From NCBI GenBank assembly GCA_963977015.1, contig CAXBMO010000015.1, positions 96,773 through 160,772 of the forward strand: a stretch of DNA of 64,000 nt. The letters run 5' to 3'. The position numbers and the translations under genes were made by a program. Below, piece by piece: positions 34,383-49,667 of the stretch; within the stretch, counting starts at the first letter, position 1, and each line of letters starts with the position of its first letter. This stretch comes from an uncultured bacterium (GTDB lineage Bacteria; Verrucomicrobiota; Verrucomicrobiia; Verrucomicrobiales; DEV007). The notes under the pieces are model-generated. The model saw only the letters and a list, made by a program, of their open reading frames with translations. It was not told where the DNA came from and ran no database searches.

Positions 34383-34862
34383 TTACGATTGCGACGAAGT
34401 TTGCTTCATCTCGCTTACCTGAATTTCATCGCAAGCCGCCTGCAGGTTGCGGTAGGACGCAATGAACCCGAGGCGCAGATAATCCCACGAATCGGCGCTT
34501 GCCACCTTCAATTCGTCGAGCTTCCTCCGCGCATCCTGGAGTTGGCTTTGCGCTTTGGCGCGCAGGAGACGGGTTTCGTCCCGGACTCGCTCGGTTGAGT
34601 CTTCGGCGCCTTCGCGCAATTCGTCAAATTTCAGCTTGGCAGCCTGCAGGGCGTCCCTCGCCGCTTCCTCAAATTGCTGCTTCTTCTCGAAGGATACAGC
34701 TTGAACCTCCTCCATTTTTTCCTCCGCCTCTTGTCGGGCTCGATCCTTCTGCAGTTGAAGTGCATCGACGGCATCGTGCGCCTTTTCTTTGATGAAGTCG
34801 CCGGTTGTTTCCGCGGCATCCTTGATCTTATCCGTTACGTCCGTCAGGTTGGTATTTGTCAT
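34383..34862 (-). CDS. LEA/YtxH-like helical stress protein
   Basis: A/K/E/D-rich amphipathic helices; sigma54 promoter upstream. Confidence 0.65.
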   Translation of the reverse strand: MTNTNLTDVTDKIKDAAETTGDFIKEKAHDAVDALQLQKDRARQEAEEKMEEVQAVSFEKKQQFEEAARDALQAAKLKFDELREGAEDSTERVRDETRLLRAKAQSQLQDARRKLDELKVASADSWDYLRLGFIASYRNLQAACDEIQVSEMKQTSSQS

Positions 34863-34895
34863 GATGATTGAGAGTTGAGTTTCAACTGTTTGTGG

Positions 34896-34911
34896 CGCAG
34901 TAGCTGTGCCG
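34896..34911 (-). promoter_or_regulatory. sigma54 -24/-12 promoter (LEA-like gene)
   Basis: CGGCACAGCTACTGC (GG-N10-GC). Confidence 0.7.
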
Positions 34912-35043
34912 CTGAATTGTGGGGTTCCACAACTCGTTTATAATCAGCGGGTTGGCGAAGTGATCCCATTTCCCTGAAATGCAGAAGTCTTGCAGGGTGC
35001 CCTGAGTGATTCCGGCGAAGCTTGCAAATCGCAATGCGGTACA

Positions 35044-35997
35044 TCAACTCTTCCCGATCTCTTCAGGAAGCGGCCCCTTAAATGTTAACGTGCGATATGG
35101 GAAAGGAATTTCGATCCCGGCATCGTCGAGCGCTTTCTTGATGGCGGTGACGACTTCGCCGCAGGAACGCCGCCCCTCGCGCGGACTGCTGTCGGTCCAC
35201 CACGACACGTCGATGTCGATGCTGCTGCTGCCGAAAGCTTCGGGGAACACGTCGATTGGCTGCGAGCCGTCGACCGTTTCGCAACTTGCAACCGCTTTTT
35301 CGATGATGGGGAGGGCTTCGCTGACGTTCTCGTCATAGCCGATTCCGGTGGTGAGATGGATGCGCCGCTTCGGTTTCGATGTCACCACCTCAACGGCATT
35401 CTTGAAAAGGGATGCGTTGGGGATGACCACCAATTCGCCGGTCGATCGCCGGATGATCGTGTTGCGGATCTCCACTTTTTCAACCCGGCCATCCACGTCG
35501 CCACATTTGATAAAGTCGCCGTCCTCGAAGGCAAAACGCCATAAGAGGAGAATCCCGGCAAAGAAGTTCTCGAAGATGTCCTTGAACGCAAAACCAATGG
35601 CGACGGAGAGCAGGCCCAATCCCCCCAACGCCTTGGCCGGGGTGAGCCCGGGAAAGATGATCATGGCCGTTAGCATCAAACCCACGAGCCAGACGACGAT
35701 GACGATGAACCGCTGGAACAATTGCTTGAGCGACTTGCGCATTCGCTTGCGCCCTCGCAAGCTGCGTTGCGCGATGGATCCTGCGATTCCGGCAGCGAGC
35801 CAGGTAAATAACAGGGCAACAAGGCCGGCAACCAAAAAGGGAATATGGCCCACGAAATCAACCCAAACGCCGCCCAGGGTCTCAAGAAGGGTTTCTTTGA
35901 TTTCGTCCAGTGAGTCCGGCAAGGCTTCCGAACCTGATTCTTCCTCAGAGGGTTGAGAGCCTTGCGCAAGAAGGGTGGGAGAGAACGCAGCAATCAT
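35044..35997 (-). CDS. mscS: Small-conductance mechanosensitive channel
   Basis: AIGFAFKDIFENFFAGI, GD.I, VVIPNA, AGIEIPFP. Start placed downstream of the sigma54 promoter. Confidence 0.9.
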   Translation of the reverse strand: MIAAFSPTLLAQGSQPSEEESGSEALPDSLDEIKETLLETLGGVWVDFVGHIPFLVAGLVALLFTWLAAGIAGSIAQRSLRGRKRMRKSLKQLFQRFIVIVVWLVGLMLTAMIIFPGLTPAKALGGLGLLSVAIGFAFKDIFENFFAGILLLWRFAFEDGDFIKCGDVDGRVEKVEIRNTIIRRSTGELVVIPNASLFKNAVEVVTSKPKRRIHLTTGIGYDENVSEALPIIEKAVASCETVDGSQPIDVFPEAFGSSSIDIDVSWWTDSSPREGRRSCGEVVTAIKKALDDAGIEIPFPYRTLTFKGPLPEEIGKS

Positions 35998-36011
35998 ATC
36001 ATTCACGGTCA

Positions 36012-36027
36012 TGCAAAAGCTGTGCCA
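36012..36027 (-). promoter_or_regulatory. sigma54 promoter (mscS)
   Basis: TGGCACAGCTTTTGCA, a near-perfect consensus. Confidence 0.85.
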
Positions 36028-36147
36028 ATGGCCTGCAGGGGAAAATGCACCAGTGTGAGGGGTGGAAGCCTTGCGCATTGCAAGCTCTCGGGCCTTGCAT
36101 TCGTGCGGATTGCAAGCGTTGCCTGACATCGGCCGGGAGTTTCCGGG

Positions 36148-36163
36148 TGGCATAAGTACCGCT
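36148..36163 (+). promoter_or_regulatory. sigma54 promoter (baeRF gene)
   Basis: TGGCATAAGTACCGCT. Confidence 0.65.
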
Positions 36164-36177
36164 CTTTAAGGTTGATT

Positions 36178-37308
36178 ATGACTACAGCTATCAACCAACG
36201 GTCTGCGGTACGGGTTCACGATCTCATCGAGGTTCTGGATGCCCTTCTCGAAGAGAATCAAAACCCGGGAAACCGCCTCACGATCTATTTGCCTTCGGCA
36301 GAGCCGGATCAACTTTCCAGTCTGCTGTCGTCGGCACGGAAAACGGCGAGGGAATCCGTTCACCACGCCCAAAACGCCAACGCAAAGGCAAGTGACGCGA
36401 TCATGCAGCAAGTCAATGCCGTGTTCGAAGACGAGGACGATTTCGTTCCCTATCACTGCGCCGCAGTCTTCATCGAACCCGAACAAACCCGGGTGTTTCG
36501 GCTCGGGGCGAACTTCTCCCCTGCGTCGTTCTACTCTCACCGGTGGCATCTGACGCCGATGATGGATTTGGCGGCAAATGTTCATGCTTTCAACGTGTTG
36601 TTGTTGAGCCAGAATGCGGTGCGCCTGTTTCGCGGTTCGCGGCTGGGAATACGCGACATTTCGACCCCGAAGATGCCCAAGTCGTTCGACGAATCCAAAG
36701 TCGCGTCTCTCAGGGCAGGTGGTGATGATCCCAAAGCGGAACGGCAAAGCTCGCCGGACAAGGAACTGATGGCGCGCTTCTTCCAGGAAATTGACCGCGA
36801 GGTCGTTGCGGCCACTGCCGGGCTGCAAGGTCCGCTCATCCTGGCGGGCGCTGCCTTTTACCTTCCAATTTATGAGGAAATCACCAAGCACCCGAAGTTC
36901 TCCGGAAAAATCCTCGAAGGAAACCACGAGCATAGTTCGCCGGTTCAACTGCAGGAGCTTGCGATGGAAGCCTTGCATCACGAATTGATTGAAAGCCGGA
37001 AAGCCCAGCTTTTGCATCTTCACCAGTTGGATGGCCAGGGTAAACTGGAGTCCAATCCAGATCACGCGCTCCTCGCGGCACACCAGGGCCGTATCAAATC
37101 TCTCGTCGTGCCTTCCGATGTCGTGCGCTGGGGACGGTTCGACTCACAGGGTGGGACGGTTGAAGAAACGGATCCCCACGATTTCCTGGGAAGCGATCTT
37201 CATCAGCTGACGGCGGAGTTCGCGCTACAGAATGGTGCGGAGCTGTTCTATCTCCGGCACTCCAAAATGCCTTCCAGCCACCCATTGGCCGCTGCATTGA
37301 GATACTAA
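36178..37308 (+). CDS. Bacterial archaeo-eukaryotic release factor-like protein (baeRF3/7 type)
   Basis: LTIYLP, VLLLSQNAVRLFRG, FFQEIDREV...PLILAG, AAHQGRI..L, GA...AAALRY C-terminus. Confidence 0.75.
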   Translation: MTTAINQRSAVRVHDLIEVLDALLEENQNPGNRLTIYLPSAEPDQLSSLLSSARKTARESVHHAQNANAKASDAIMQQVNAVFEDEDDFVPYHCAAVFIEPEQTRVFRLGANFSPASFYSHRWHLTPMMDLAANVHAFNVLLLSQNAVRLFRGSRLGIRDISTPKMPKSFDESKVASLRAGGDDPKAERQSSPDKELMARFFQEIDREVVAATAGLQGPLILAGAAFYLPIYEEITKHPKFSGKILEGNHEHSSPVQLQELAMEALHHELIESRKAQLLHLHQLDGQGKLESNPDHALLAAHQGRIKSLVVPSDVVRWGRFDSQGGTVEETDPHDFLGSDLHQLTAEFALQNGAELFYLRHSKMPSSHPLAAALRY

Positions 37309-37341
37309 CAACAAGAGAAACGACCAAACCCAAGACAAAAA

Positions 37342-37373
37342 GAAAACCGGGAAGTTGATACCTCCCGGTTTTC
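37342..37373. terminator. Bidirectional terminator
   Basis: GAAAACCGGGA...TCCCGGTTTTC between convergent genes. Confidence 0.75.
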
Positions 37374-37396
37374 CTGGGTCATGAGATCAATCGACT

Positions 37397-37582
37397 TCAC
37401 AGTTGATCGATCATCTTCTTAACTTCCTCCTTCGATTTTCCGAGCTTGCGTTGCAGTCGGCCGAAAAGCTCTTCTTCCTTACCTTCTACATAGTTCAGGT
37501 CGTCATCGGTCAGGTTGGCGAATTTTTGCTTCAGCTTTCCGCGAACGATGTTCCAATTGCCTTTAATTTGTTCTTTGGTCAT
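37397..37582 (-). CDS. csbD: CsbD/YjbJ general stress protein
   Basis: IKGNW...GKLKQKFANLTDDDL...EGKEEEL.GRLQ.KLGK. Confidence 0.93.
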   Translation of the reverse strand: MTKEQIKGNWNIVRGKLKQKFANLTDDDLNYVEGKEEELFGRLQRKLGKSKEEVKKMIDQL

Positions 37583-37615
37583 GGTCTTAAGATAGGTTGT
37601 TCGGAGGACTTAAAG

Positions 37616-37631
37616 GGCATGATTCATGCCA
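37616..37631 (-). promoter_or_regulatory. sigma54 promoter (csbD)
   Basis: TGGCATGAATCATGC. Confidence 0.8.
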
Positions 37632-37673
37632 GGCGATTCCTCCCTGAATTCTCGTGAGGGAGGGCGGAGAACA

Positions 37674-37708
37674 ATGCAATTCGCAAGCCTTCCCCATGCA
37701 ATTCGCAA
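37674..37708. promoter_or_regulatory. Paired enhancer (UAS) motif between divergent sigma54 promoters
   Basis: ATGCAATTCGCAA occurs twice, with starts 22 bp apart. Confidence 0.7.
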
Positions 37709-37750
37709 TTGCATCCACCAGGTTTCGCCAACGTGTCGGTGGTCGTGATC

Positions 37751-37766
37751 TGGCATGATTCATGCG
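37751..37766 (+). promoter_or_regulatory. sigma54 promoter (DUF1328)
   Basis: TGGCATGATTCATGC. Confidence 0.8.
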
Positions 37767-37799
37767 CTTTATGAAGCCGAACCTCTACTTTCTATTGCT

Positions 37800-37961
37800 A
37801 TGTTATATTGGACTCTGCTGTTTCTTCTCGTCGCGATGGTCTCCGGCGTTCTCGGCTTCGGAGGCGTTGCCGGTGCCGCAACGACCATTGCCAAAGTGTG
37901 TTTCGTCATCTTTCTCATTCTTTTTCTGATCAGCCTTATTGCTGGACGACGGAGCACGTAA
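37800..37961 (+). CDS. DUF1328 (YtjA) small membrane protein
   Basis: MLYW.L.FLLVA...[19 protein letters not shown]. Confidence 0.92.
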
Positions 37962-37978
37962 TTGGTCGTGGAAACGGT

Positions 37979-37994
37979 TGGCACAATCCCTGCA
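37979..37994 (+). promoter_or_regulatory. sigma54 promoter (yqaE-PRC)
   Basis: TGGCACAATCCCTGCA. Confidence 0.75.
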
Positions 37995-38010
37995 ATGGAA
38001 GAACCCAGTT

Positions 38011-38223
38011 ATGAAAGAAGAAACTAAAGATGTCTTACGTATCCTCCTGGCAATTATTCTCCCGCCGGTTGGCGTCTTCCTCCAGGTTGGCATCAGGTTG
38101 CATTTCTGGATCAACCTGATTCTGACGATTCTGGGATATATCCCGGGAATTATCCACGCGATCTACATCATCGTGACCCGAAAGCCCAAGTTGGCCGATT
38201 CACCGCTAAGTCGTTCCGTCTAA
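38011..38223 (+). CDS. YqaE/Pmp3 family membrane protein
   Basis: ILLAIILPPVGVFL..G....FWINLILTILGYIPGIIHA. Confidence 0.93.
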   Translation: MKEETKDVLRILLAIILPPVGVFLQVGIRLHFWINLILTILGYIPGIIHAIYIIVTRKPKLADSPLSRSV

Positions 38224-38254
38224 CAGAAGTCGATTCCGATTTCAAACAATTACC

Positions 38255-38998
38255 ATGTTTCGAACCACCAAATCAGTCATCGGCGATCCTGTTGATGCGA
38301 CGGACGGGCGTTGTGGGAGGTGCAGCGATTTGTTGTTTGACGATGATTCGCTCACCATCCGCTACGTTGTCGTCGATACCGGCGGCATTCTCACGAGGCA
38401 CGAAGTTCTGGTGAGCCCGTTCCTAGTGGGGGAACTGGAAACAGGTCAGATCAGCCAGCATATCCGGCTCAAGGCGACCAAGGATCAAATTGAAAAATCC
38501 CCGCCTATTTCCACAGATGCGCCGGTTTCACGGAAGGCCGAAGAAGCGCTGGCCAAGCACTTTGGTCATCCGCCCTACTGGACCCAGGGGCCATCAGTCG
38601 TCCCCGCGACCGGGGAGACCAAGATCGCCTCCGATCTGGCCGAGGCTCGCGAAACCCATCTCCGCTCCGCCAAAGAAGTGACCGGTTATGAAGTATGCTC
38701 TTCCGAAGAGGCCGAGCCCGAGCCTCTGGGAACGATATCCGATATCGTGTTCCAGACGAACAATTGGACCTTGCGCTACTTCGTCGTGAACACGGGATCG
38801 TGGTTCAATCGTAAACCGGTCATCGTATCGCCACGCTGGACCAAAACGATTCACTGGTCGAACCACACGGTCGTTTTGGACCAGATCACCAAGGAACATC
38901 TCAAGGGTGCTCCGCTTTTTGATCCACATTCAGGGATCAACCGGGATTACGAAGGCCGCCTTTTCGATTACTACGGCAAGCCCGTCTACTGGGAATAA
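38255..38998 (+). CDS. Tandem PRC-barrel domain protein
   Basis: Two repeats of G..V...G..D..F....RY.VV.TG....V.VSP; HLRSAKEVTGY; ends YYGKPVYW. Confidence 0.88.
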   Translation: MFRTTKSVIGDPVDATDGRCGRCSDLLFDDDSLTIRYVVVDTGGILTRHEVLVSPFLVGELETGQISQHIRLKATKDQIEKSPPISTDAPVSRKAEEALAKHFGHPPYWTQGPSVVPATGETKIASDLAEARETHLRSAKEVTGYEVCSSEEAEPEPLGTISDIVFQTNNWTLRYFVVNTGSWFNRKPVIVSPRWTKTIHWSNHTVVLDQITKEHLKGAPLFDPHSGINRDYEGRLFDYYGKPVYWE

Positions 38999-39016
38999 CA
39001 TTCGATCGGTCAGACG

Positions 39017-39050
39017 AAAATCGCCAGCCTGTGGGCAACAGGCTGGCGAT
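39017..39050 (-). terminator. Terminator hairpin between the PRC gene and sodC
   Basis: ATCGCCAGCCTGT-GGGCA-ACAGGCTGGCGAT, with an A run on the left (U tail for the minus strand). Confidence 0.7.
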
Positions 39051-39092
39051 CCTTGGTTTCCTATCGTGGTGCAGTGGGTCGGCCTTTCGGCC

Positions 39093-39773
39093 TTATTCGA
39101 GCTTGTCTTTGAGCTCTTGCACAGCGTCTGAGATCTTTTCGCCAATCTTCTCGGCGGCTTTCTCCAGCTTGTCGCCCGCCTGGTCCAGCTTGGACGATGG
39201 AGGGCTCACTCCAATCACGCCAACCGCAGCTCGGCTTCCGGCTTCACCGCTCGGTTGGGCACCGGTGTCGGCTCGATGGTGAACCACCACGCTACGCCCG
39301 ATAATGGCGTTGTAATCTGTCAGGGTAATGTTGGCCACCAGTTTGTCGATCCTGGCAACGCCTTCGCTGTCCGCCTTCAGATTTCCCAAGTCCCCGGCAT
39401 GGCGCATCACCTGTCCAGGGAGTCCGTGGTCGTGGCCCTGCGGGTTGAAGTGGCCGCCGACCGTGGAACCGTCCGGTGCAGAAGTATCGGCATATTGGTG
39501 GATGTGGAATCCGTGCTCCGAATTCGGAATCAGCCCCTCGACCATGCCGGTTACCTTCACCCCGGCCTCGGCTTGGTGAAAGTAGACTGCGCCGCGAACC
39601 GGGCTGTCCTTGGTGGGCTGAAGTACAGCCATGAGGCTGTCGATGGGAGCCTGAGCCTCGGTTTGGGAGGGATTCGCTTCCGAATCGTCCTGAGCCATGG
39701 CTCGTTCGGAGAGGAAGATCAGCGGAGTCGCGATCAGAAGAGCGACTCGGAGTTTGGTAGGGTAGGTATTCAT
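39093..39773 (-). CDS. sodC: Periplasmic Cu/Zn superoxide dismutase
   Basis: HGFHIH, GGHFNP...HG, HAGDLGN, GRSVVVH, GEAGSR; signal peptide. Confidence 0.9.
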   Translation of the reverse strand: MNTYPTKLRVALLIATPLIFLSERAMAQDDSEANPSQTEAQAPIDSLMAVLQPTKDSPVRGAVYFHQAEAGVKVTGMVEGLIPNSEHGFHIHQYADTSAPDGSTVGGHFNPQGHDHGLPGQVMRHAGDLGNLKADSEGVARIDKLVANITLTDYNAIIGRSVVVHHRADTGAQPSGEAGSRAAVGVIGVSPPSSKLDQAGDKLEKAAEKIGEKISDAVQELKDKLE

Positions 39774-39895: not shown

Positions 39896-40153
39896 TTAAC
39901 GGTAATTGTGTCGGTGATTTCCGTAGCGGCGATCCTTGCCGCTCCCGATGGCCGCTCCGGCGGCTGCTCCGATAGCTCCGCCGATCAGGGCTCCTTCACC
40001 GCGGCGTCCGTCATCAGCGGCTACTGCTCCGATTGCGGCTCCGCTCAATCCACCGGCCACTGCTCCGCGTTGGGTATGGGTTTGGCAGCTGGTAAAAGTT
40101 AGCGCGCCGCAGGCAGCGGTGACGGCTAGTGTTTTATGCAGGGTTGTTTTCAT
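39896..40153 (-). CDS. Glycine-zipper lipoprotein
   Basis: FTSC lipobox, GAVAGGLSGAAIG...GALIGGAIGAAAGAAIG. Confidence 0.85.
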   Translation of the reverse strand: MKTTLHKTLAVTAACGALTFTSCQTHTQRGAVAGGLSGAAIGAVAADDGRRGEGALIGGAIGAAAGAAIGSGKDRRYGNHRHNYR

Positions 40154-40203: not shown

Positions 40204-40219
40204 TGCAGATGCCGTGCCA
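40204..40219 (-). promoter_or_regulatory. sigma54 promoter (glycine zipper-sodC)
   Basis: TGGCACGGCATCTGCA. Confidence 0.8.
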
Positions 40220-40415
40220 ATCGGAATTCTCCCGACGGATGGCTTTCGAGCCGGGTCGAAAGCTTGCGAAGTGCAAGAAACCGTTGCGAGTTGCACAGGA
40301 CACCTCACCCGGCGCTTTGCTCGACTGAATAGAAAAGGATTGGCGCAGGCCACTCACGATCTATTCGTGCGGCCTACGCCAATCGGGTTGGGGAGGAGTT
40401 TGTGAGGGGAGAAGA

Positions 40416-41081
40416 TTAGGTTTCGTCGATTTCCTCAACGTCCACCTCGGTATCGGCCTCAACTTCAAGCTCAGCTTCCGGCTGGGGCTCGACTTCCGGT
40501 TCTTGTTCGATGGTTATCTCGGATTCGGGGCTTTGAGGCCCAGCTTTCATCGCTTCGCCCTCCAGTGTTACGCCCCAATAGGCGTAGACTTGATGAGCTT
40601 CGATGGTGTCGACCTCGGTTGCGTTGAATTCGAACCCGTTTTCCATTTTGTCTTTGGTGGCATCCAGGTTCAGGTGCAACTCGCCTTCTACTTCCAGATT
40701 CTCGACCACATTGAACGACTTCCAGGGAATGAGGTAGTGTTTCTCGCCGAGACCCAGGAAGCCGCCAGCTTCCACGACTCCAAAATGGAGGCGTCCGTCG
40801 TCAGAGTCGAAAACGAACTCAGTAAGGGTGCCGATTTTTTCACCGCCCAAGTCTTTCACGGGAGCACCGCGAAGTTTCCCGGTGCTCATGAAGTTGGCGG
40901 TGTAGGTTTTGGGAGCCTTCTCGGCTTCGGCAATCGGCTTGACGGGTTCAGGTTTGGCGGGATCGGCCGCTGTGGGATCGACGGGGCCAGGAAGAACCAC
41001 GTTGGTTTCATTCTGCGCCAAGGCGGGATAAGCACTCAACGCGAACAGTATCGTTAGGATGGTTGTGAGTTTGGTTTTCAT
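40416..41081 (-). CDS. Secreted PRC-barrel protein with acidic tail
   Basis: Signal peptide; LRGAPV....GEKIG...GGFLGLGEKHYLIPW. Confidence 0.85.
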   Translation of the reverse strand: MKTKLTTILTILFALSAYPALAQNETNVVLPGPVDPTAADPAKPEPVKPIAEAEKAPKTYTANFMSTGKLRGAPVKDLGGEKIGTLTEFVFDSDDGRLHFGVVEAGGFLGLGEKHYLIPWKSFNVVENLEVEGELHLNLDATKDKMENGFEFNATEVDTIEAHQVYAYWGVTLEGEAMKAGPQSPESEITIEQEPEVEPQPEAELEVEADTEVDVEEIDET

Positions 41082-41147: not shown

Positions 41148-41163
41148 TGCATCAATCGTGCCA
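41148..41163 (-). promoter_or_regulatory. sigma54 promoter (PRC-barrel)
   Basis: TGGCACGATTGATGCA. Confidence 0.85.
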
Positions 41164-41294
41164 ACCTGGGGAACCGTGATTCCTCCCGTTAAACGCGCAT
41201 GCCCGGTGGGGAGAAACCACTTTTGGCACTGGGCGGATTGCAAATGTCCGATGCAGGTTGCAACTGCGGTGTGCAAGCCGCAATGCTCCCTTGG

Positions 41295-42398
41295 TTAGCC
41301 GCTGCCAAGAGTCGGTTTGGGCAGCCACAATTTGGCACCGGCTGACCAGGCGTCCGGAGCAAGATGGATCCAAACCAAACGCAGTGTCGCCATCAACGGA
41401 ACGGCGATCAGCACTCCACCGATTCCCCAAAGCCAGCCCCAAAGGAGAATGCCGGCGTATACGATCAGCACGTGCAGTTCCATCGCCTTACCCAGCAGAA
41501 CGGGAGTGATCGCATTGGCTTCCACCATATTGGCGCCGAGGTAGATTGCCGGCGCGAGGAGCGCGTAGAGAGGGGAGTCAAAGGTAACGAACGCAACAAA
41601 GAACACGATGCAGGAACCGGTTAGCAATCCAAGGTAGGGGATGAAGTTGAGGCACGCCGCCATCACTCCCCACAAGAGCGGGTTGGGCATGCCGATGGCC
41701 CACAGTCCCAGGCCGATGACCGTGCCGAGGCCCGCGTTGATGAGGGAAAAGGTGAAAAGATAACGCGAGACGATGTTCTCGGCAGTGGCGGCCAATCCGG
41801 TCGCGCGGCTTTGTCGGCCGCTGGCTGCAGCCAAGTCGGAAAGTCGCTTCAGCGCATCATCGCCAAAGGCGAGCAACAGGAACAGGCAACTGATGGCGAT
41901 GCCAACTTGCAACAATGCCTCGGTTGTGGCGTTGAGGACGGCAGTGGTCAAGGCGGGCCTGGCCACCTCCACCTTCAAAACCTTCGGCGTCTTGTCACCC
42001 TCAGTCAGTTTTTCCAACTCGCCTGCAGCCTTGTTGAAGTCTTCGACGGATTTTTTGACCGGGTAGATTTTACGTTCAACCTTTTCGAACTGGGTTGGAG
42101 CATTGTGAATCCATTTGGCCGCCGGGCCGCTGAGCAGATAGACGCCGTTGATTCCGGCCACGAGGATGGCCAGCACCACAACGGCTGAAGCGACGACCGT
42201 GGGCAAGCGAAGCTTGTTGTAGAGAAAGCGCACGACGGGCCCCAGCGCCAACGCCACCAGAATTGCCAGGACGATGGGGAATAGCAGCGCTTTGGCGACG
42301 AAGAGGATGGCAAGAGCCCCCATCACCGCGAGGGTGATGAGGGCGATGTCTGCGGCGCGCGATAGCGCGGTGTCCTGGGAAGAGGGGATCTCGTTCAT
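41295..42398 (-). CDS. AI-2E family transporter
   Basis: Multi-TM; LNFIPYLG, WGWLWGIGGVLIAVP. Confidence 0.9.
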   Translation of the reverse strand: MNEIPSSQDTALSRAADIALITLAVMGALAILFVAKALLFPIVLAILVALALGPVVRFLYNKLRLPTVVASAVVVLAILVAGINGVYLLSGPAAKWIHNAPTQFEKVERKIYPVKKSVEDFNKAAGELEKLTEGDKTPKVLKVEVARPALTTAVLNATTEALLQVGIAISCLFLLLAFGDDALKRLSDLAAASGRQSRATGLAATAENIVSRYLFTFSLINAGLGTVIGLGLWAIGMPNPLLWGVMAACLNFIPYLGLLTGSCIVFFVAFVTFDSPLYALLAPAIYLGANMVEANAITPVLLGKAMELHVLIVYAGILLWGWLWGIGGVLIAVPLMATLRLVWIHLAPDAWSAGAKLWLPKPTLGSG

Positions 42399-42577: not shown

Positions 42578-42859
42578 TCACACCCTCCGGGCCGGACGGG
42601 AAATGAGGCCGAAGACCAGCGAAACAATTGCTGCGCCGATGACGGACCAAACGATGGGGAAGGGCTCCCCTTGAATATTGACGGACAGGATGGTGGGCAG
42701 GCCCAGGGCGCCAGCGAGCCAGAGACCGACAAACGCGCCCACAAAGCCGAGCACGATCGAAACCAGGCATCCGCCAGCAGAGTAACCACCGAGCATTTGC
42801 CCGGCACCGCCGCAGAGCGCCGCTACGAGTAAGAGGAGGAGGAAACCGCCGATTGTCAT
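42578..42859 (-). CDS. GlsB/YeaQ/YmgE stress membrane protein
   Basis: VAALCG..GQ.L.G...GGCL.SIVLGFVGAFVG...WSVIGA. Confidence 0.85.
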   Translation of the reverse strand: MTIGGFLLLLLVAALCGGAGQMLGGYSAGGCLVSIVLGFVGAFVGLWLAGALGLPTILSVNIQGEPFPIVWSVIGAAIVSLVFGLISRPARRV

Positions 42860-42907: not shown

Positions 42908-42923
42908 TGCATGACTCGTGCCA
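42908..42923 (-). promoter_or_regulatory. sigma54 promoter (GlsB/YeaQ-AI-2E)
   Basis: TGGCACGAGTCATGCA. Confidence 0.85.
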
Positions 42924-43022
42924 CGGCGTGTTTCCCGTGAATTCGGTGGATCGCCGGGCTTGTTCCGAGCGATTTGCATGACCCGGTTTGCAATTCGCAA
43001 GGGATCGGTGCGCGGCCGGTGC

Positions 43023-44765
43023 CTACTGCGCGATGGGCTTGGCAATCAGCACCTGGTTGCCGGAGGCACGGTGTTTGACGAGCTTCGCTTCGTAATCATC
43101 CCGTCCGTAGATGTCGAAGTAATGGCGAATCTCCTTGGTTTCGGGATGAGGAAAGGCGGTGAAATAGGTCACGTAAACCGGAATTGGCTCCTCAATGGTG
43201 ACGGAGTTTCGCGAGCCGCGGCGCATTGCCTGGGCGACTCGATCCTTACTCCAGCCTTGCGGACCCAACACCCACTCGGCAAAGGCAGCGGGTTTCTCCA
43301 ACCGAATGCAGCCGTGGCTGAAGTCGCGTTCCGATTGGGAAAACAGATGGTCTTCGGGCGTGTCGTGCAGGTAAACGGAGTGATCGTTGGGAAAGAGAAA
43401 CTTCACTGCGCCAAGGGCGTTGTGCCGACCCGGAGTTTGTCGGATTTTCAGCGTCCCGTCTTTCAGGGCCCAGAAGGTGGAACGAGAAAGCGGGAGTGGG
43501 CGCGCGTTCCAATCAAAGCTGCGGACGATCTCGTAACCGTTTCGGCTTAGATAGCTTGGGTCGCGGGCGACCTTCGGCAGAATCTCGCCTTGGAGGATGG
43601 AGTCGGGAACATTCCAATAGGGTCGAAACACGACATAACGCATGGTCTCGCGGAACAGTGGCGTGCTTCGAGCGCCGCTTTTGCCAAAGACGACGCGCAT
43701 GCTGACCTCGAGCTTGGGCCCGTTGAATCCATAGACTTCACCCGAGGGCAGGTTGACCATGACGTAGCGCTTCCCGGGGGCGTCCGGCATCAGGCGGGCC
43801 CGCTGCAGATTCAAGTGGACCAACTCGAGTTTGCGGGCAGGGCTTCGGTTGAGTGCTGCGTGAGTGTCAGGGCCGAGAATCCCGTCGGCTTTCAGATTGT
43901 GCGCTTGTTGGTAGAGGAGCAAGGCGTCCGACAGTTCTTTCGTTACCGTCGATTCGGGGGTCTCGCCGTCGTAGAACCCTTCCTCCTTCAGTCGGCCCGC
44001 CAACAGCGCCGCGCTGGCAAAACCATCACCCGCACGAAGGTACTTTCCCGGCTCCAATTCCGGCAACGGAGCAAAGCTTTCTTGCTCAGCGGCGGCGGTT
44101 TCTTTGCGGACCATCCACTCGGCGTGCAATTGGCGATAAATCCAATGGGTCGGGACAAAGGCCGTCAGGAGGTTGTCGAACTCCAACCCATTCCCCGTCG
44201 TTTGCCACGCATTCAGTTGCTGGTGAATGTCGTCCAACCGCGTCTCGTTATCGAAGCTGCCCGGTGTGTCACCCCGGTCCCAATGAGCCCACAACTCGTT
44301 GGGTCGCACTTGACCGAATCGTACTCGCAAACCGGCATCCAGGACACACACCGTCGTCGCCATATCCGCAGCGGGAACGGCCAGCTCCGTGGATTCCAGC
44401 GCGCGCATCAGCTCGTCCCGCGACGCCTGCCCGATGGGCGATACGCCTTCGCGCTCGGCAAACCGGGAGAGTCGTGTCGCCAGGTCATCGATCTTCTGTT
44501 CCCAGAGCGGCTGGAACTCGGCCCGCGCATAGAGTTGTGTCGCCAATTCGATCAAGGCACCAGGTTCGTAGGGCGTGTCCTTCAACACCGCGCGGATGGG
44601 AGACGCGATCGTGTCGGCCAGAATCTCCGCCGTCAGCACCGGCTCGAGTTCCGGATCAGGTTCAGCTTCGGTGGCAACGGGACTGAGAGGGTTGGCGCCA
44701 TTCACAAAGAGCGGCAACCACACCAAGGGGATTATCCAGGCGATCGCTTTCATAGCTAAACTCAT
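43023..44765 (-). CDS. L,D-transpeptidase, YcbB/LdtD-like, with PG-binding domain
   Basis: YQ..HNL.ADGILGP.T, PYWNVP.SI, NALG.VKFLFPN, YLHDTP, SHGCIR. Confidence 0.92.
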   Translation of the reverse strand: MSLAMKAIAWIIPLVWLPLFVNGANPLSPVATEAEPDPELEPVLTAEILADTIASPIRAVLKDTPYEPGALIELATQLYARAEFQPLWEQKIDDLATRLSRFAEREGVSPIGQASRDELMRALESTELAVPAADMATTVCVLDAGLRVRFGQVRPNELWAHWDRGDTPGSFDNETRLDDIHQQLNAWQTTGNGLEFDNLLTAFVPTHWIYRQLHAEWMVRKETAAAEQESFAPLPELEPGKYLRAGDGFASAALLAGRLKEEGFYDGETPESTVTKELSDALLLYQQAHNLKADGILGPDTHAALNRSPARKLELVHLNLQRARLMPDAPGKRYVMVNLPSGEVYGFNGPKLEVSMRVVFGKSGARSTPLFRETMRYVVFRPYWNVPDSILQGEILPKVARDPSYLSRNGYEIVRSFDWNARPLPLSRSTFWALKDGTLKIRQTPGRHNALGAVKFLFPNDHSVYLHDTPEDHLFSQSERDFSHGCIRLEKPAAFAEWVLGPQGWSKDRVAQAMRRGSRNSVTIEEPIPVYVTYFTAFPHPETKEIRHYFDIYGRDDYEAKLVKHRASGNQVLIAKPIAQ

Positions 44766-44777
44766 CTCATTCTTATC

Positions 44778-44793
44778 AGCAAGGTGCCTGCCA
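44778..44793 (-). promoter_or_regulatory. sigma54 promoter (L,D-transpeptidase)
   Basis: TGGCAGGCACCTTGCT. Confidence 0.75.
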
Positions 44794-44896
44794 AACCAGC
44801 CACAAGGCTCGACCGCGATGAATCACGCGTTCCAATCGCGCGGAATGCATCGCCGGTTTGCGTTTCGCAAGGGCGTTGGGGGTTGTGCGGACCAAG

Positions 44897-45442
44897 TCAG
44901 CCGATCTTGGGATCCAGGATCAGATCGACGAAGTATTTGATCTTCCGGTAAGCATTGGAGCGGACCGAAAAACCATATCGCTCGCACGCCACGTCCTTGA
45001 TCCAATCCAGCAACGACGAGCCAAACTCATCGCTGCGCGCCTTCCAATCGCAGACCATCTCCGCGAGCTGAACCCGGCTCATGTCTTCCACCCCGGAAGT
45101 GAAGTATTCCGGGTGATGGTTGTTGCGTTGCTGGTGCTGATGTACGGCCAGGAGCAGTTTATCCTGATTTTCCTGGTCGCTTGGGTCGATGTCGAGAAAG
45201 TCCCACTCAATGCCCTCAAACTTGCTTGCATCGTGGCAAAGGCTGCGCTGCACCAGACGACGCGCCAGATCGAACTCTCCGCGTTCCGCAAGGCGCCCGG
45301 CCAATAAAATCGCGGTGTCTTGAACGTGCTGAATGTGCCGGATCCGAAAATTCAGCTTCTTCTGAAACGCCGCGATTTGTTCGGCGGAAACGTCCGGCGT
45401 TTGTTCGGCTTGAGCGCCGCCGTTGGAGGGTTGTTGGCTCAT
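44897..45442 (-). CDS. HD-like phosphohydrolase (DUF5662-like)
   Basis: HIQHV, HDASK, H...N.HHPEY, EMVCDW. Confidence 0.75.
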   Translation of the reverse strand: MSQQPSNGGAQAEQTPDVSAEQIAAFQKKLNFRIRHIQHVQDTAILLAGRLAERGEFDLARRLVQRSLCHDASKFEGIEWDFLDIDPSDQENQDKLLLAVHQHQQRNNHHPEYFTSGVEDMSRVQLAEMVCDWKARSDEFGSSLLDWIKDVACERYGFSVRSNAYRKIKYFVDLILDPKIG

Positions 45443-45499
45443 CTGGGAAGTGAAGTTCGGGAGGTTGGCATCGTTTTGGTTTTGGTGAGGGAACGAAAT

Positions 45500-46207
45500 T
45501 TACGGTTCGTTGTCCACGTTATACGCCAAATGTCCCAGCAAATTGGCAGCTCGATAAAATCGACTGCTGGCAAACTTGGATTCGTTGTCCTTACCTTGCT
45601 CGAAGGCCTTCAGGTGATGCACGATCAGGTTCCACAGGTTCTGTTTGTCGGGTTTTTCGTCCCGTTCCTCTGCCTGGTCGAGCACTTCAATTGCCTCATT
45701 GAGCCGTTGTCGTCTTAGGAAGTAGCGCACGCGACTCAGCAGCGGCCTTTTGTGGTCCGGCTCACTGGCGTTGGCCTCTTCGCTGAGAACCTTTTGGACG
45801 ACTCCCCAGATTTGGGGAGGCAGGACCGGTTTGCAGAGAAAGTCGACCACGCCCAACTGCACGGCCTCGATCGCGGTGACCGAATCCATGTAGGCGCTGC
45901 AAAGGATGGTGGGTAGGTAGTTTCCATCAGCGCGCAGTTTCCTCAGGACCTGGATGCCGTCGAGGCCCGGCATGCGGACGTCCAGAAGCATGACGCCGTA
46001 GTAGTTTTCACCCTTTTTTTCCAGAATCTGCAAAGCTTCCTCTCCATCTTCGGCATAACTGGTTTCATAACCCTCGGACTCCAATGCCATCCGAAATCCA
46101 ATCCGAAGAGACTTTTCATCGTCTACAATGAGAATTTTTGTGGGATCGTTTTCGGTCGACTCAGAGGCTTGGCCTGAAGCGGTGGATGTTGGGCTCGGAT
46201 TTTTCAT
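45500..46207 (-). CDS. Response regulator (REC plus helical C-terminus, no obvious HTH)
   Basis: IVDDE, LLDVRMP, FLCKP; ATGA-coupled to the HK. Confidence 0.88.
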   Translation of the reverse strand: MKNPSPTSTASGQASESTENDPTKILIVDDEKSLRIGFRMALESEGYETSYAEDGEEALQILEKKGENYYGVMLLDVRMPGLDGIQVLRKLRADGNYLPTILCSAYMDSVTAIEAVQLGVVDFLCKPVLPPQIWGVVQKVLSEEANASEPDHKRPLLSRVRYFLRRQRLNEAIEVLDQAEERDEKPDKQNLWNLIVHHLKAFEQGKDNESKFASSRFYRAANLLGHLAYNVDNEP

Positions 46208-48030
46208 GTCGCGAGAGGAAGGCTAAAGTAGAATTCGGTTGATTGGCCGGGACTGCTGTTGACGCCGATTCTGCCTCCATGCGCATAAATTATTTCGCGG
46301 CAAATCGACAAGCCCAAGCCCACGCCGTCACTTTTTTGATTCGGGAGGCGGTAGAACTTGTCGAAGACGCGATCCTGCAGCTCGTAGGGAACGCCCGGTC
46401 CATCGTCGAGCACGGAGAAGCGGACAAACTCGGAGCCATTCTTGGAGGCGCGCAGGCGAATGCGGCCTTTCTCCGGACCATACTTCACCGCGTTGGAAAT
46501 CAAATTGTCCAGGACCTGCATCGCCCGGCCCCGATCCGCAAAAACCCGGGGTAAATCATCAGCAATTTCCGTGCTTAAGATAATATCCTGTTCCTCCGCC
46601 AGGGCGGAAAAATGCTCCACGGCACCATCGATAAGACTTTGGGGGGTAACGGGTACGGTTTCCAGTTGTTTGGCGCCGCTCTCCCACCGTGCCATCTGCA
46701 GGTGGTGTTCGAGGGTCTGAAGCAACCGCTCGCAGTCTTCGCAGGAAGTGTCGACCATCTGCTGTTGGCGGTCGGTCATGGGACCCAGTTTCTTGGAGCG
46801 GAGAAGATGGAGGGCCATCCGAATGCTCGTCAGCGGCGTCTTGATCTCGTGGCTGACGGTGGCGATCATGTCGGTCTTCAAATCGTCCATCCAGCGAAAA
46901 CGGGTGACATCATTGAGGACAACTGCCCAGCCAGCCGGAATCCCGGTCTCATCCTCAATCTGGAAGATGCCGGGGAGGTAGTAGTATTCTTTTTCGCCAA
47001 CGCGTTTGAGAATGGCGTCGTTCAGGTCTTCCGGAAGATAGTCTTCGTTGCTTTCCAAAACCCGATCGACCAGGGCGCGAATCTTTTTCGGCAAGCGGCC
47101 GGGTGTGGCCAGCTTTTCAATCAACTCCTCCGCTACCGAGTTTACCTGTGAAATTTCTCCATCCCGATTCAGGATAATGATGGGGTGCGGGAAGGTTGCC
47201 AGAATTGCCCGGCTTTCCAGGTTGGCGCGAATCACAATCTGGTCGTTGGCATGGAGCAATTCGCGCATTTCCGCAGCCATGTCGTTGAACGCAACCGTCA
47301 GTTCTCCCAGCTCGTCGGATTTCTCCACCGGGATTGCGAGCTCGAACTTGCGCTCGCGCACCTGTCGAATCGACTCGGTGAGTTTCGATACCGGGCCGAC
47401 GATCGACCGGCCAAACTGGAAGTAGATTAGAATGGCCACCATGCACGCCGCAGTGACGACGACAATCATGAGGCGCACCGATTCTCGAGCATGGCGCACC
47501 GCCAGATTGCGCTCGGTCAGCATGGTTTGCTCAAACAGGGAAACGGCCTGCTCGGACTCCGATGCGACTTGTTGTGTCAGGGCCAAAATCCGATCGTGAT
47601 ATTCTTTCCGGGCGGAAAGGTCGGATTCGGCATCGAGGACCTCTTCGTACTCCGTCAGGTAGGTTTGCAAACTGGTGTCCAGCCGTTGAACGACTTCCCT
47701 TTCGGCCGGGCGAAGTCCATTTCGCTCCAGAATGGAAAACGCGGTATCGATCCGCTTGCGATAATCTTCAAAGAGTTGCGGGCCGGGGTTCAAACCGTCA
47801 GTCTCCACCAAGGTAGGTAGATAATTGGCATTGAGCGTAACGATATAGAGGCGCAGGTCGTTTGCCGCGCGGATTGCGTCGTAGTCTTTTGCCAGGATTT
47901 GGTCCGTGCGCTGGGCGTGTTGGCGCAGAAAGGAAACGCCAAAACTGCCAAGAATCATCAGGAGGACGATCATCACAATCAGTCCGGCCAAAACGCGATT
48001 GCGAATTTTGTAGGGAGAAAACATTGTCAT
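46204..48030 (-). CDS. Sensor histidine kinase, KinB-like (periplasmic helical-HAMP-PAS-HisKA-HATPase)
   Basis: Two TMs, DELGEL..AFNDM, SHEIKTPLTS, NAVKY, DDGPG, GVGLGL. Confidence 0.9.
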   Translation of the reverse strand: MTMFSPYKIRNRVLAGLIVMIVLLMILGSFGVSFLRQHAQRTDQILAKDYDAIRAANDLRLYIVTLNANYLPTLVETDGLNPGPQLFEDYRKRIDTAFSILERNGLRPAEREVVQRLDTSLQTYLTEYEEVLDAESDLSARKEYHDRILALTQQVASESEQAVSLFEQTMLTERNLAVRHARESVRLMIVVVTAACMVAILIYFQFGRSIVGPVSKLTESIRQVRERKFELAIPVEKSDELGELTVAFNDMAAEMRELLHANDQIVIRANLESRAILATFPHPIIILNRDGEISQVNSVAEELIEKLATPGRLPKKIRALVDRVLESNEDYLPEDLNDAILKRVGEKEYYYLPGIFQIEDETGIPAGWAVVLNDVTRFRWMDDLKTDMIATVSHEIKTPLTSIRMALHLLRSKKLGPMTDRQQQMVDTSCEDCERLLQTLEHHLQMARWESGAKQLETVPVTPQSLIDGAVEHFSALAEEQDIILSTEIADDLPRVFADRGRAMQVLDNLISNAVKYGPEKGRIRLRASKNGSEFVRFSVLDDGPGVPYELQDRVFDKFYRLPNQKSDGVGLGLSICREIIYAHGGRIGVNSSPGQSTEFYFSLPLAT

Positions 48031-49394
48031 TCGATCCCGAGTTTTTTGCGTTTGCGATAGAGTGTGGCCTGGTCGATTCCGAGGATTCTTGCCGCTTCGA
48101 CCATGCTGCTGGCCCGGCCCAAAATGCGGCGCAAGTGTTCTTCTTCCAATTGCTCCAACGTGGCGTCCGAACCGACCTCCGGGCCGAATTCCGCAGAATG
48201 GGGTGCGGATTGCGTTTTGCTGACATGTGGAGCTCCATCGCCAGCCGGCAAATCCTCAACCCGAACCGTACTGTCGCGGCAGAGAATCGCGGCCCGTTCA
48301 ATCGAATTGCGAAGTTCGCGCAGGTTGCCCGGCCAGTTGTAGGTCGTGAGCCAGGCCTTTGCGTTCTCGCTAAAGCCGGTGATCTCGCGCCCGGTTTGCC
48401 GCGCGAAAAAGCGCAGGTATTGTTCCGCAAAGTAAACCAGATCCTTGGGCCGGCTCCGCAGCGGCGGCATTTCGACCGCGATGACGTGGAGCCGGTAGTA
48501 GAGATCTTCGCGAAACTCACCTTCCTCGACCAATTCTTTCAGGTTGCGATTCGAGGCGGCGATGATCCGGACGTCCGCCTGGCGGGTCTTGTTCTCACCC
48601 AGCCGTTCGTATTCGCGTTCCTGAAGGAGGCGTAGCAACTTGGGTTGAATGTCGAGTGGCAGCTCGCCAATTTCGTCCAAAAACAAGGTTCCTCCATGGG
48701 CGGCGTGGACCTTTCCCCATTTATCCTTAATGGCCCCCGTAAACGAGCCTTTGACGTGGCCGAAGAGCTCGCTCTCGAGCAATTCCTTGGACAAACTGGG
48801 GCAGCTGATCGTAACCAGGGGTTTCGACTTCAGGTGGCTGCGTTGATGGACCGCCTTGGCAACGACGCTTTTGCCCGTCCCGCTTTCGCCGAGAACCAAG
48901 ATCGAAGCAGGCGTCTGCGCGGCGCGAAACAGCACTTCGTAGACCTCCGTCATCAAACTGTCCTGCGATTCGAAGACCGGCTCGGGAGATTTCTCGGCCA
49001 CCTCCACCTCCAGTTCTTCGATCCGGCTCTGCATTTGGCGATGCTTCTGGAGCCGTGCCAGCAGTCCGTTCAACGCGTCCGGGGTAAACGGTTTTTCCAA
49101 AAAATCAAACGCGCCCAGATGCATGGCTTTGACCGCAGTTTCAACCGTGCCGTAGGCGGTGAAGACGACCACGTCGGTGTTCTTGTACCGCTTTTTGATG
49201 TCTCGCAGAACGTCGAGTCCGTTTTCTTCGCCCAAGCGTAGATCAAGAAGGACCAAGTCGAAAAAGTCTTCGTTGAGCCGCATTAACGCCACCGGTCCGC
49301 CATCGACGCCCTCAGCATAGTGATCCTCCGCCTCCAAAGCCATAATGGTGGCGTCACGAATATTTTTTTCGTCATCAACTACAAGGACATCCAT
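48027..49394 (-). CDS. sigma54-dependent response regulator (NtrC/AlgB-like bEBP)
   Basis: REC; GESGTGKS, ESELFGH..GSFTGA, LFLDEIG, WPGNLREL; Fis HTH AARILGID.ATLYRK. Confidence 0.95.
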   Translation of the reverse strand: MDVLVVDDEKNIRDATIMALEAEDHYAEGVDGGPVALMRLNEDFFDLVLLDLRLGEENGLDVLRDIKKRYKNTDVVVFTAYGTVETAVKAMHLGAFDFLEKPFTPDALNGLLARLQKHRQMQSRIEELEVEVAEKSPEPVFESQDSLMTEVYEVLFRAAQTPASILVLGESGTGKSVVAKAVHQRSHLKSKPLVTISCPSLSKELLESELFGHVKGSFTGAIKDKWGKVHAAHGGTLFLDEIGELPLDIQPKLLRLLQEREYERLGENKTRQADVRIIAASNRNLKELVEEGEFREDLYYRLHVIAVEMPPLRSRPKDLVYFAEQYLRFFARQTGREITGFSENAKAWLTTYNWPGNLRELRNSIERAAILCRDSTVRVEDLPAGDGAPHVSKTQSAPHSAEFGPEVGSDATLEQLEEEHLRRILGRASSMVEAARILGIDQATLYRKRKKLGIE

Positions 49395-49410
49395 ATGAAA
49401 ACGCCTCAGA

Positions 49411-49426
49411 TGCAGGAATTGAGCCA
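49411..49426 (-). promoter_or_regulatory. sigma54 promoter (bEBP operon)
   Basis: TGGCTCAATTCCTGCA. Enhancer pair GTGCAAAACGCAA (49507) and TTGCAAAGTGCAA (49539) lies upstream. Confidence 0.65.
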
Positions 49427-49667
49427 GATGTTACGCCATGCGCGATAACGCCTTGATAATCTGCGGGTTGGGAAGGTTCGTGAGGTTGTAAAACCCCTAT
49501 CATGTAGTGCAAAACGCAAGGTATTGTGAACCTCTTCATTGCAAAGTGCAATGCTCGACCGAAAATCGCGGCCGCCAGGTTTTCAGGAACCGTCCCTCGC
49601 AAGCCTGATTGACTCGCCACGCAACTTGCCGCTTTGCGGGAGCGGGGATCGGTGAAAGGTTGGTTGG

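Follow-up and report, generated by a model that had tools for sequence, protein, structure and literature searches.

In silico evidence for a sigma-54-dependent regulon of stress-protective genes beside an NtrC-family two-component activator in a member of the Verrucomicrobiales

The three master regulators of the general stress response, RpoS, SigB and EcfG, cover only some bacterial lineages. The locus described here, from an uncultured soil or water bacterium of the Verrucomicrobiales, raises the question whether protective genes of this kind can be placed under sigma-54 and a dedicated activator. It lies in a window of 64 kb (C15:96773-160772; contigs, loci and genomes of relatives are given by our C, L and G numbers), taken from a genome of 6,885,723 bp with 51 contigs and 56% GC, and occupies positions 34383-49560 of that window: a run of genes for small stress-associated and envelope proteins, closed by a bacterial enhancer-binding protein (bEBP) and a sensor histidine kinase. 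An earlier note had read it as a self-contained general stress regulon, wired through sigma-54 and an AlgB/KinB-like pair, in this lineage at large. Our analysis makes it highly probable that the cluster's stress-protective genes, mostly for envelope and small membrane proteins, form a sigma-54-dependent regulon, which is switched on by the two-component activator at its edge. This core of the proposal is upheld in silico by a palindromic enhancer, autoregulation, conservation and the presence of rpoN, whereas its general-stress, AlgB/KinB, self-contained and lineage-wide parts are not.

The first step concerns the promoters. All eleven GG-N10-GC sites that the earlier note had claimed are present where it had placed them and on the same strands; each is named below by its 5′ end and strand, and the terms composite match and canonical consensus are explained after the list:

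34896..34911, minus strand (34911-): CGGCAC-N6-CTGCG, weaker variant, heads the LEA-like (sll1863-like) gene; GC to ATG 35 nt; composite match with the enhancer site at 35020
36012..36027, minus strand (36027-): TGGCACAGCTTTTGCA, heads MscS; 11/12 to the canonical consensus; composite match
36148..36163, plus strand (36148+): TGGCATAAGTACCGCT, weaker, heads baeRF; GC to ATG 16 nt; composite match
37616..37631, minus strand (37631-): heads CsbD; composite match
37751..37766, plus strand (37751+): heads DUF1328; composite match
37979..37994, plus strand (37979+): heads Pmp3, then a PRC-barrel gene; missing from the composite list
40204..40219, minus strand (40219-): heads the Gly-zipper lipoprotein gene, then SodC; composite match; in the canonical-consensus set
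41148..41163, minus strand (41163-): heads the second PRC-barrel gene; composite match; in the canonical-consensus set
42908..42923, minus strand (42923-): heads GlsB/YeaQ, then the AI-2E transporter; composite match; in the canonical-consensus set
44778..44793, minus strand (44793-): TGGCAGGCACCTTGCT, sigma-54-type, heads the YkuD L,D-transpeptidase; composite match; in the canonical-consensus set
49411..49426, minus strand (49426-): TGGCTCAATTCCTGCA, sigma-54-type, heads the activator operon; GC to ATG 18 nt; composite match; arrangement repeated in orthologous loci

All eleven sites are intergenic and face a start codon when the first downstream in-frame start is used, with 14-68 nt between the -12 GC and that start. 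The strict pattern TGGCAY-N6-TGC is matched exactly by seven of them (36027-, 37631-, 37751+, 37979+, 40219-, 41163- and 42923-); these are the only matches in the window, all fall between 36013 and 42923, and none of 100 dinucleotide shuffles of the DNA reaches seven (mean 0.98, maximum 4), while the entire genome holds 119. Independently of the cluster, we scored the genome with a canonical sigma-54 consensus (TGGCACG-N4-TTGCW, GG and GC required, maximum score 12). At 11/12 or better, five of the genome's 54 matches lie in the interval against 0.119 expected (Poisson P 1.8e-7), so that the regional enrichment which the earlier note had proposed to check is borne out; at 10/12 or better the interval holds six of 454 (expected 1.0, P 6e-4), and at 9/12 or better 12 of 2847 (expected 6.3, P 0.027), a weak excess of about twofold. 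Because the excess is strong at the highest threshold and weak at the lowest, the enrichment is carried by the good matches. Only two matches to a sigma-70-like consensus are seen in 16 kb, fewer than the shuffle mean of 5.7, and both fall outside the promoter-bearing intergenic regions. As a separate observation, a 15-kb stretch of another contig (C1:103642-118800) contains six sites at 10/12 or better to the canonical consensus, a density equal to that of the cluster studied here.

Upstream of the promoters a second motif recurs. Within 220 nt of the sites we recognized, by inspection, the palindrome TTGCR-N3-YGCAA with the consensus CTTGCRAWTYGCAAG; an iterative position weight matrix (PWM) built over eight intergenic regions recovered 16 palindrome sites with the consensus CCTTGCAAATTGCAAGG. 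One to three copies lie 40-120 nt upstream of 10 of the 11 promoters, and six of the window's seven exact matches to TTGC-N5-GCAA fall in the promoter-bearing intergenic regions. The putative upstream activating sequences (UAS) are distributed as follows:

34988..35036: UAS for 34911-, strong dyad 35020-35036 (21.3 bits) and weak dyad 34988-35004 (9.2 bits)
36069..36117: UAS pair, dyads 36069-36085 and 36101-36117, 32 bp apart, common to 36027- and 36148+
37672..37710: UAS pair, dyads 37672-37688 and 37694-37710, 22 bp apart, symmetric, exactly 41 nt from both 37631- and 37751+
40262..40298: UAS pair for 40219-, 20 bp apart
41229..41285: UAS for 41163-, three weaker dyads, 20 bp apart
42965..43002: UAS pair for 42923-, 21 bp apart
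44856..44872: UAS for 44793-, one dyad (17.1 bits), with a degenerate second copy about 22 bp nearer the promoter
49505..49553: UAS pair for 49426-, 32 bp apart, upstream of the activator's own promoter

The paired dyads stand either 20-22 bp apart (37672/37694, 40262/40282 and 42965/42986) or 32 bp apart (36069/36101 and 49505/49537), distances that correspond to two or three helical turns and place both dyads on one face of the helix. At 37631-, 37751+, 40219- and 42923- the two dyads are centred some 50 and 71 nt before the GG, and at two places a single pair is situated between divergent promoters (36027-/36148+ and 37631-/37751+). The pair upstream of 49426- predicts positive autoregulation of the activator. 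We know of no described bEBP site that CTTGCRAWTYGCAAG matches.

For a genome-wide search, promoter and enhancer were combined into a composite: a promoter-PWM match scoring 14 bits or more, preceded at 25-200 nt by a palindrome scoring 11 bits or more. The genome contains 16 such composites, nine in the cluster and seven outside, and its reversed sequence, used as control, contains none. As the cluster supplied the training sites of both PWMs, its own 9-10 composite matches are circular, and only the matches outside it and in other genomes count as independent evidence. Looser thresholds give 28 matches against 8 in the control. Outside the cluster, the following composites head plausible targets:

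C2:385190, plus strand: heads a second DUF1328 gene
C6:211193, plus strand: heads a DUF2383 gene
C6:214025, minus strand: heads a PRC-barrel protein gene
C14:23896, minus strand: heads an APC-type amino-acid permease gene
C31:60487, plus strand: heads a 48-aa open reading frame (ORF) of no family
C6:208934, plus strand, lower score: heads dodecin, then aconitase

The regulon is thus largely clustered, with at least five credible composite promoters elsewhere in the genome and the dodecin promoter as a weaker sixth, and the description "self-contained" has to be given up. These counts also bear on the simplest alternative, namely that the GG-N10-GC sites arose by chance or belong to sigma-70 or extracytoplasmic function (ECF) promoters and that no sigma-54 regulon exists. 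Loose patterns are indeed common (the window has 50 occurrences of TGG-N9-TGC, 33.7 being expected), and at 9/12 the interval is, as described, only about twofold enriched; nevertheless, the strict matches exceed expectation by a wide margin (7 versus 0.98; 5 versus 0.119), the composites stand at 16 versus 0, other genera keep this arrangement in front of genes of the same families, and both rpoN and a bEBP are present, which makes this explanation extremely improbable.

We next turn to the proteins that would act on these sites. The regulator operon is composed of four genes:

48027..49394, minus strand: bEBP with receiver (REC), sigma-54-interaction AAA+ and Fis-type helix-turn-helix (HTH) domains
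46204..48030, minus strand: sensor histidine kinase with two transmembrane segments, periplasmic four-helix-bundle sensor, HAMP, PAS, HisKA and HATPase
45500..46207, minus strand: receiver-only protein of the same operon, with a tail of about 100 aa that belongs to no known family
44897..45442, minus strand: DUF5662 protein, last gene of the operon

The bEBP is recognized in all three parts (PF00072, 86.8 bits; PF00158, 223 bits; PF02954/HTH_8, 25.3 bits) and possesses the acidic residues of the receiver, a Walker A motif GESGTGKS at residue 169 and, at residue 216, the loop GSFTGA. This variant of GAFTGA is also listed for the Desulfovibrio vulgaris regulator DVU3220 in PMC4641369. Within the operon, the start of the kinase gene and the bEBP stop codon overlap by 4 nt, and the two transmembrane segments of the kinase flank a periplasmic sensor of about 145 aa (4HB_MCP). 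The order bEBP-kinase-receiver is kept in G005, G017 and the metagenome-assembled genome (MAG) locus L069, where the relatives of the receiver-only protein sit after the bEBP and the kinase. A likeness to AlgB/KinB, as had been suggested, could not be substantiated: The activator reaches the cut-off of no named NCBIfam equivalog (score/cut-off: AtoC 379/714, NtrC 365/559, PEP-CTERM regulator 359/503, ZraR 317/760), and the 25 best-scoring models shown do not include AlgB. The activator is a generic regulator of the NtrC family. The sigma factor itself is encoded once in the genome, by an rpoN with one PF04552 match (203 bits) in a 484-aa ORF, and strong sigma-54-activator domains (PF00158) number eight.

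From promoters, enhancers and regulators we infer the following mechanism. The membrane kinase, with its periplasmic four-helix-bundle sensor, HAMP and PAS domains, would phosphorylate the receiver domain of the NtrC-family activator in response to a signal that its sensor presumably receives. Activator dimers would bind the tandem 15-bp palindromes, usually in twos and 20-22 or 32 bp apart, oligomerize and use ATP to open closed complexes of RNA polymerase and sigma-54 at TGGCAC-N5-(A/C/T)TGCA promoters. At two places one enhancer pair would serve two divergent promoters, and the activator operon (bEBP, kinase, receiver-only protein and DUF5662), carrying the same enhancer and promoter, would generate positive feedback. 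About 10 clustered promoters together with the at least five elsewhere would give roughly 15 targets.

The target genes within the cluster and their family assignments are listed here:

34383..34862, minus strand: LEA-like protein, helical and charged, weak match to the sll1863 stress family
35044..35997, minus strand: MscS-type mechanosensitive channel, start taken at ATG 35997
36178..37308, plus strand: baeRF family 3 protein (Pfam)
37397..37582, minus strand: CsbD, followed by a terminator with a 16-bp stem at 37375-37340
37800..37961, plus strand: DUF1328/YtjA
38011..38223, plus strand: Pmp3/YqaE proteolipid
38255..38998, plus strand: first PRC-barrel protein, with a strong hairpin downstream at 39020-39050
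39093..39773, minus strand: SodC, Cu/Zn superoxide dismutase
39896..40153, minus strand: Gly-zipper lipoprotein
40416..41081, minus strand: second PRC-barrel protein
41295..42398, minus strand: AI-2E family transporter
42578..42859, minus strand: GlsB/YeaQ (Transgly_assoc) small membrane protein
43023..44765, minus strand: L,D-transpeptidase with Scaffold, PG_binding_1 and YkuD domains

Pfam and NCBIfam confirmed nearly all families that had been named: MscS, baeRF, CsbD, DUF1328, Pmp3, both PRC-barrels, SodC, Gly-zipper, AI-2E, GlsB/YeaQ (as Transgly_assoc), the YkuD L,D-transpeptidase, the REC-AAA+-HTH_8 bEBP and the histidine kinase. The "LEA-like" protein is charged and helical as described, but its one family match, to the sll1863 stress family, stays below threshold (25.9 bits, cut-off 35). 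Likewise, most of the genes said to be headed by a site are so, with the exception of SodC, AI-2E and the first PRC-barrel, which have no site of their own and are the second genes behind Gly-zipper, GlsB and Pmp3, respectively. The baeRF family 3 protein is a bacterial homologue of the archaeo-eukaryotic release factor, and the enhancer of its sigma-54 promoter is common with MscS; a tblastn search of 19 orthologous loci found no homologue of it. Adjoining the cluster, at 32342-34107 on the minus strand, are genes for an OmpR-type response regulator and a cytoplasmic-type histidine kinase, which lack a composite promoter; this pair is probably unrelated to the regulon.

Is the arrangement conserved in relatives? 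Full-length activator orthologues with 54-70% identity were found in 15 of the 40 relatives searched, plus one partial orthologue; the closest named homologues (64-68% identity) come from MAGs titled Verrucomicrobiales or Verrucomicrobiia, which confirms the lineage, and four such MAG loci contain orthologues with 65-68% identity. Taken together, the orthologues in other Verrucomicrobiales span 52-70% identity. All 18 aligned orthologues have in common the C-terminal helix ..LGID(Q/A/I/H)AT(L/I)YR(K/W)R(K/R)K, which is not present in the genome's seven paralogues. Of 19 orthologous loci scanned, 13 have composite promoters, whereas two loci of more distant homologues (44-47% identity) have none. 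The composites head the activator gene directly in six loci (G005, G008, G016, L067, L068 and L069) and, in G038 and G034, the gene of the kinase, which in G038 directly precedes that of the activator; by eye, a palindrome pair is also seen upstream of the activator gene in G006 and G017. Among the other genes headed by composites in relatives are CsbD (three times), Pmp3 (twice), DUF1328, DUF2383 (twice), SodC, PRC-barrel, HSP20 and entericidin as well as OmpA, DUF892, DUF1236, YkuD, a PBP-type transpeptidase, transglutaminases and an ECF sigma factor. In 11 of the 19 loci, tblastn places CsbD, DUF1328 or Pmp3 near the activator gene, inside the stretches fetched. Moreover, a loose composite pattern is found 208 times versus 51 in the control in 17 orthologue-bearing genomes (counting the present genome and the partial orthologue) and 77 times versus 41 in 24 genomes without an orthologue, a comparison in which the relatives are not independent and genome sizes differ.

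This conservation also bears on who binds the palindrome. The promoters could be real and the palindrome bound by another protein, be it another of the roughly eight bEBPs or a regulator of a different kind, with the neighbouring two-component system controlling something else; the eight strong PF00158 matches supply candidates, and the half-site TTGCA resembles the -12 element. We consider such a split improbable, since the palindrome pair stands upstream of the activator operon both here and in eight orthologous loci (activator gene in six, kinase gene in two), to which G006 and G017 can be added by eye, since the recognition helix is kept in 18/18 orthologues and differs in the seven paralogues, and since composites are enriched in orthologue-bearing genomes.

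Two variations on the theme were encountered in relatives. In G038 (L057:8523-9923) and G034 (L060:13082-14482), which belong to one genus, a second rpoN lies inside the cluster behind a composite promoter. Its identity to both housekeeping copies is 40%, while these share 52% with each other, a comparison between families; it may represent a dedicated stress sigma-54 paralogue. In G017 (L051:9113-9703) an ECF sigma factor gene stands behind a composite promoter, suggestive of a cascade from sigma-54 to ECF. Apart from these, the region upstream of CsbD in L148 (G016:C263) presents a strong sigma-54 site, TGGCACGAACCTTGCA, preceded by two copies of a different repeat of about 40 nt, ATTTTGCAA...GAGCAAAATGCCA, in place of the 15-bp palindrome; this repeat may represent a variant of the enhancer or be bound by another activator.

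Several points weigh against a regulon of this kind and have to be set beside the evidence given above. Four of the 11 promoters are off consensus (34911-, CGGCAC..CTGCG; 36148+, TGGCAT..CCGCT; 44793-, TGGCAG..TTGCT; 49426-, TGGCTC..CTGCA). At five promoters, those of MscS, baeRF, Pmp3, the L,D-transpeptidase and the activator (35997-36027, 36148-36178, 38011-37979, 44765-44793 and 49394-49426), the -12 GC is only 14-18 nt from the start codon, which would imply either leaders of 2-6 nt, that is, near-leaderless and hence unusual mRNAs, or wrongly assigned start codons; for the activator gene, a spacing of 15-17 nt recurs in the orthologous loci L053, L054, L067 and L068. Promoter 37979+ has no UAS within 200 nt, the nearest pair being about 270 nt upstream. 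A single palindrome has no discriminating power genome-wide (83 matches of at least 14 bits versus 58 in the reversed genome), for which reason the composite with the promoter was used instead; to the circularity of the cluster's own composites comes that two of those outside it, C1:158414- and C43:3771-, appear intragenic and are probably false. The palindrome is assigned to the adjacent activator on the grounds of adjacency, predicted autoregulation and the conserved helix. Conservation is uneven, as six of the 19 orthologous loci yield no composite at the thresholds used, and among six CsbD loci away from the activator in four orthologue-bearing genomes, one has a composite, one the strong sigma-54 site with the other repeat and four have neither. 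The co-occurrence of CsbD with the activator (four of five genomes with an orthologue, one of five without, in a small and non-independent sample) is suggestive only.

What is the regulon for? Judged by its gene content, it likely serves survival of osmotic, desiccation, oxidative or stationary-phase stress. By Pfam, families of the general-stress type are present here and in relatives (CsbD, DUF1328, Pmp3, YeaQ, SodC, ferritin-like, entericidin and HSP20), and RpoS or EcfG regulons repeatedly include YeaQ, SodC, PRC-barrels, dodecin and ferritin-like proteins of the YciE/F type. The stronger statement that this is the general stress response of the organism is not established: The kinase has a single periplasmic sensor, and an RpoS/RpoD-like group-2 sigma factor of 323 aa is encoded as well. 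The latter scores 317.8 bits on the rpoS model (cut-off 378.7); NepR was searched for in the genome and not found. Its gene (contig C1, about 177.5-178.5 kb; L066:1129-2100, minus strand) is the only one of the sigma-70 family besides RpoD with region 3, and it is possible that it provides an alternative stress sigma factor.

The same mechanism could serve a narrow response to one periplasmic cue, concerned with envelope or osmotic stress and about as broad as Cpx, Rcs or Psp, while general stress control would reside with the group-2 sigma factor or one of about 54 other, mostly ECF-sized, factors of the sigma-70 family. This is a serious contender, although we would not bet on it: In its favour, besides the single sensor and the group-2 factor, are 56 sigma-70 region-2 matches in the genome and the envelope or membrane location of most products (MscS, L,D-transpeptidase, SodC, Gly-zipper, Pmp3, DUF1328 and GlsB). 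Moreover, the three genomes of the same genus that were searched (completeness 87, 92 and 59%) have no activator orthologue, their best matches being 39-40% identical; such a gap would be strange in a core general stress response, and it shows the module to be patchy rather than spread across the lineage. In G001, one of this genus, the 19 kb upstream of the GlmM orthologue contain none of the window's genes, TilS included, and the contig of G002 ends there, a picture compatible with an island insertion as well as with a deletion. Pointing the other way, cytoplasmic "general stress" proteins are also among the targets (CsbD, the LEA-like protein, dodecin and DUF2383; HSP20 and DUF892 in relatives), the content agrees with the small-protein core of sigma-S regulons as given in PMC5437024, and an rpoN of its own in one genus suggests a larger programme.

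A broader proposal, that part of the Verrucomicrobiales has placed a general stress or dormancy programme under sigma-54, a dedicated phosphorylation-controlled bEBP and the enhancer CTTGCRAWTYGCAAG, with one genus adding its own sigma-54 paralogue, is offered tentatively, as an idea more apt to fall than to stand. Were it true, it would constitute a fourth, mechanistically distinct architecture of general stress control, ATP-gated and with near-zero basal expression, and a transferable module that carries regulator and regulon together. As sigma-54 promoters are silent without their activator, wiring of this sort would amount to an all-or-none, ATP-dependent switch of survival genes, unlike competition between sigma factors. 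The second rpoN would illustrate how a dedicated sigma-54 paralogue may arise. In any case, the locus offers a testable candidate in the Verrucomicrobiales, in which the activator and its 15-bp enhancer are defined, the target promoters number about 15 and the set of targets is conserved; palindrome and conserved recognition helix together make the regulon predictable in uncultured relatives. The gain is limited in that the mechanism class is textbook and the findings are in silico.

How, finally, does the system compare with those already described? Our literature search, which did not extend to subscription-only papers, found no sigma-54-driven stress regulon of CsbD and other small proteins in Verrucomicrobia or elsewhere. 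The RpoS regulon of Enterobacteria overlaps in its families: PMC5437024 counts CsbD (yjbJ), DUF1328 (ytjA), Pmp3 (yqaE) and entericidin (ecnB) with the small ORFs that are under tight sigma-S control in Salmonella. It differs in that RpoS is a sigma-70-family factor under control of proteolysis and translation, whereas sigma-54 and an ATP-dependent, phosphorylation-controlled activator are proposed here. The EcfG-NepR-PhyR system of Alphaproteobacteria is alike in passing a two-component-type input to a regulon that depends on an alternative sigma factor, and EcfG regulons are rich in CsbD, PRC-barrel, DUF1328 and dodecin-type genes, a combination on which our search found no paper; it works, however, through an ECF sigma factor and partner switching instead of sigma-54 and a bEBP. 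Within the Planctomycetes-Verrucomicrobia-Chlamydiae (PVC) group, chlamydial CtcB/CtcC likewise joins a two-component bEBP to sigma-54, and CtcC/sigma-54 controls a developmental or survival gene set in chlamydiae. In contrast to the activator described here, with its HTH and conserved enhancer sites, CtcC is devoid of a DNA-binding domain (PMC3162934), and the gene content differs.

Further parallels exist in Proteobacteria. The plasmid-borne RpoNp of Bradyrhizobium sp. DOA9, a sigma-54 paralogue tied to stress adaptation (PMC13207237), recalls the second rpoN of G038 and G034; the genome studied here has a single rpoN, and that paper contains no mention of CsbD, osmotic stress or desiccation. 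In the deltaproteobacterium Desulfovibrio vulgaris, the two-component bEBP DVU3305 governs a small regulon labelled "General stress response, transmembrane transport" in PMC4641369, a likeness by description only, as that regulon comprises two operons and CsbD is not mentioned there. The view of Francke et al. (2011) that sigma-54 controls the bacterial exterior, as set out in PMC3162934, fits much of the cluster's cargo; in that text "Verrucomicrob*" and "Planctomyc*" have 0 occurrences. Similar in design are NtrB/NtrC, AtoS/AtoC, ZraS/ZraR and PrsK/PrsR, in which a REC-AAA+-Fis HTH activator with an adjacent kinase, tandem dyad enhancers upstream of a -24/-12 promoter and autoregulation are also combined. 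These systems are directed at nitrogen, acetoacetate, zinc and exopolysaccharide genes, whereas the cluster analysed here presents stress-protective small proteins: The class of mechanism is the textbook one of a two-component bEBP acting with sigma-54, and it is the cargo that is unusual.

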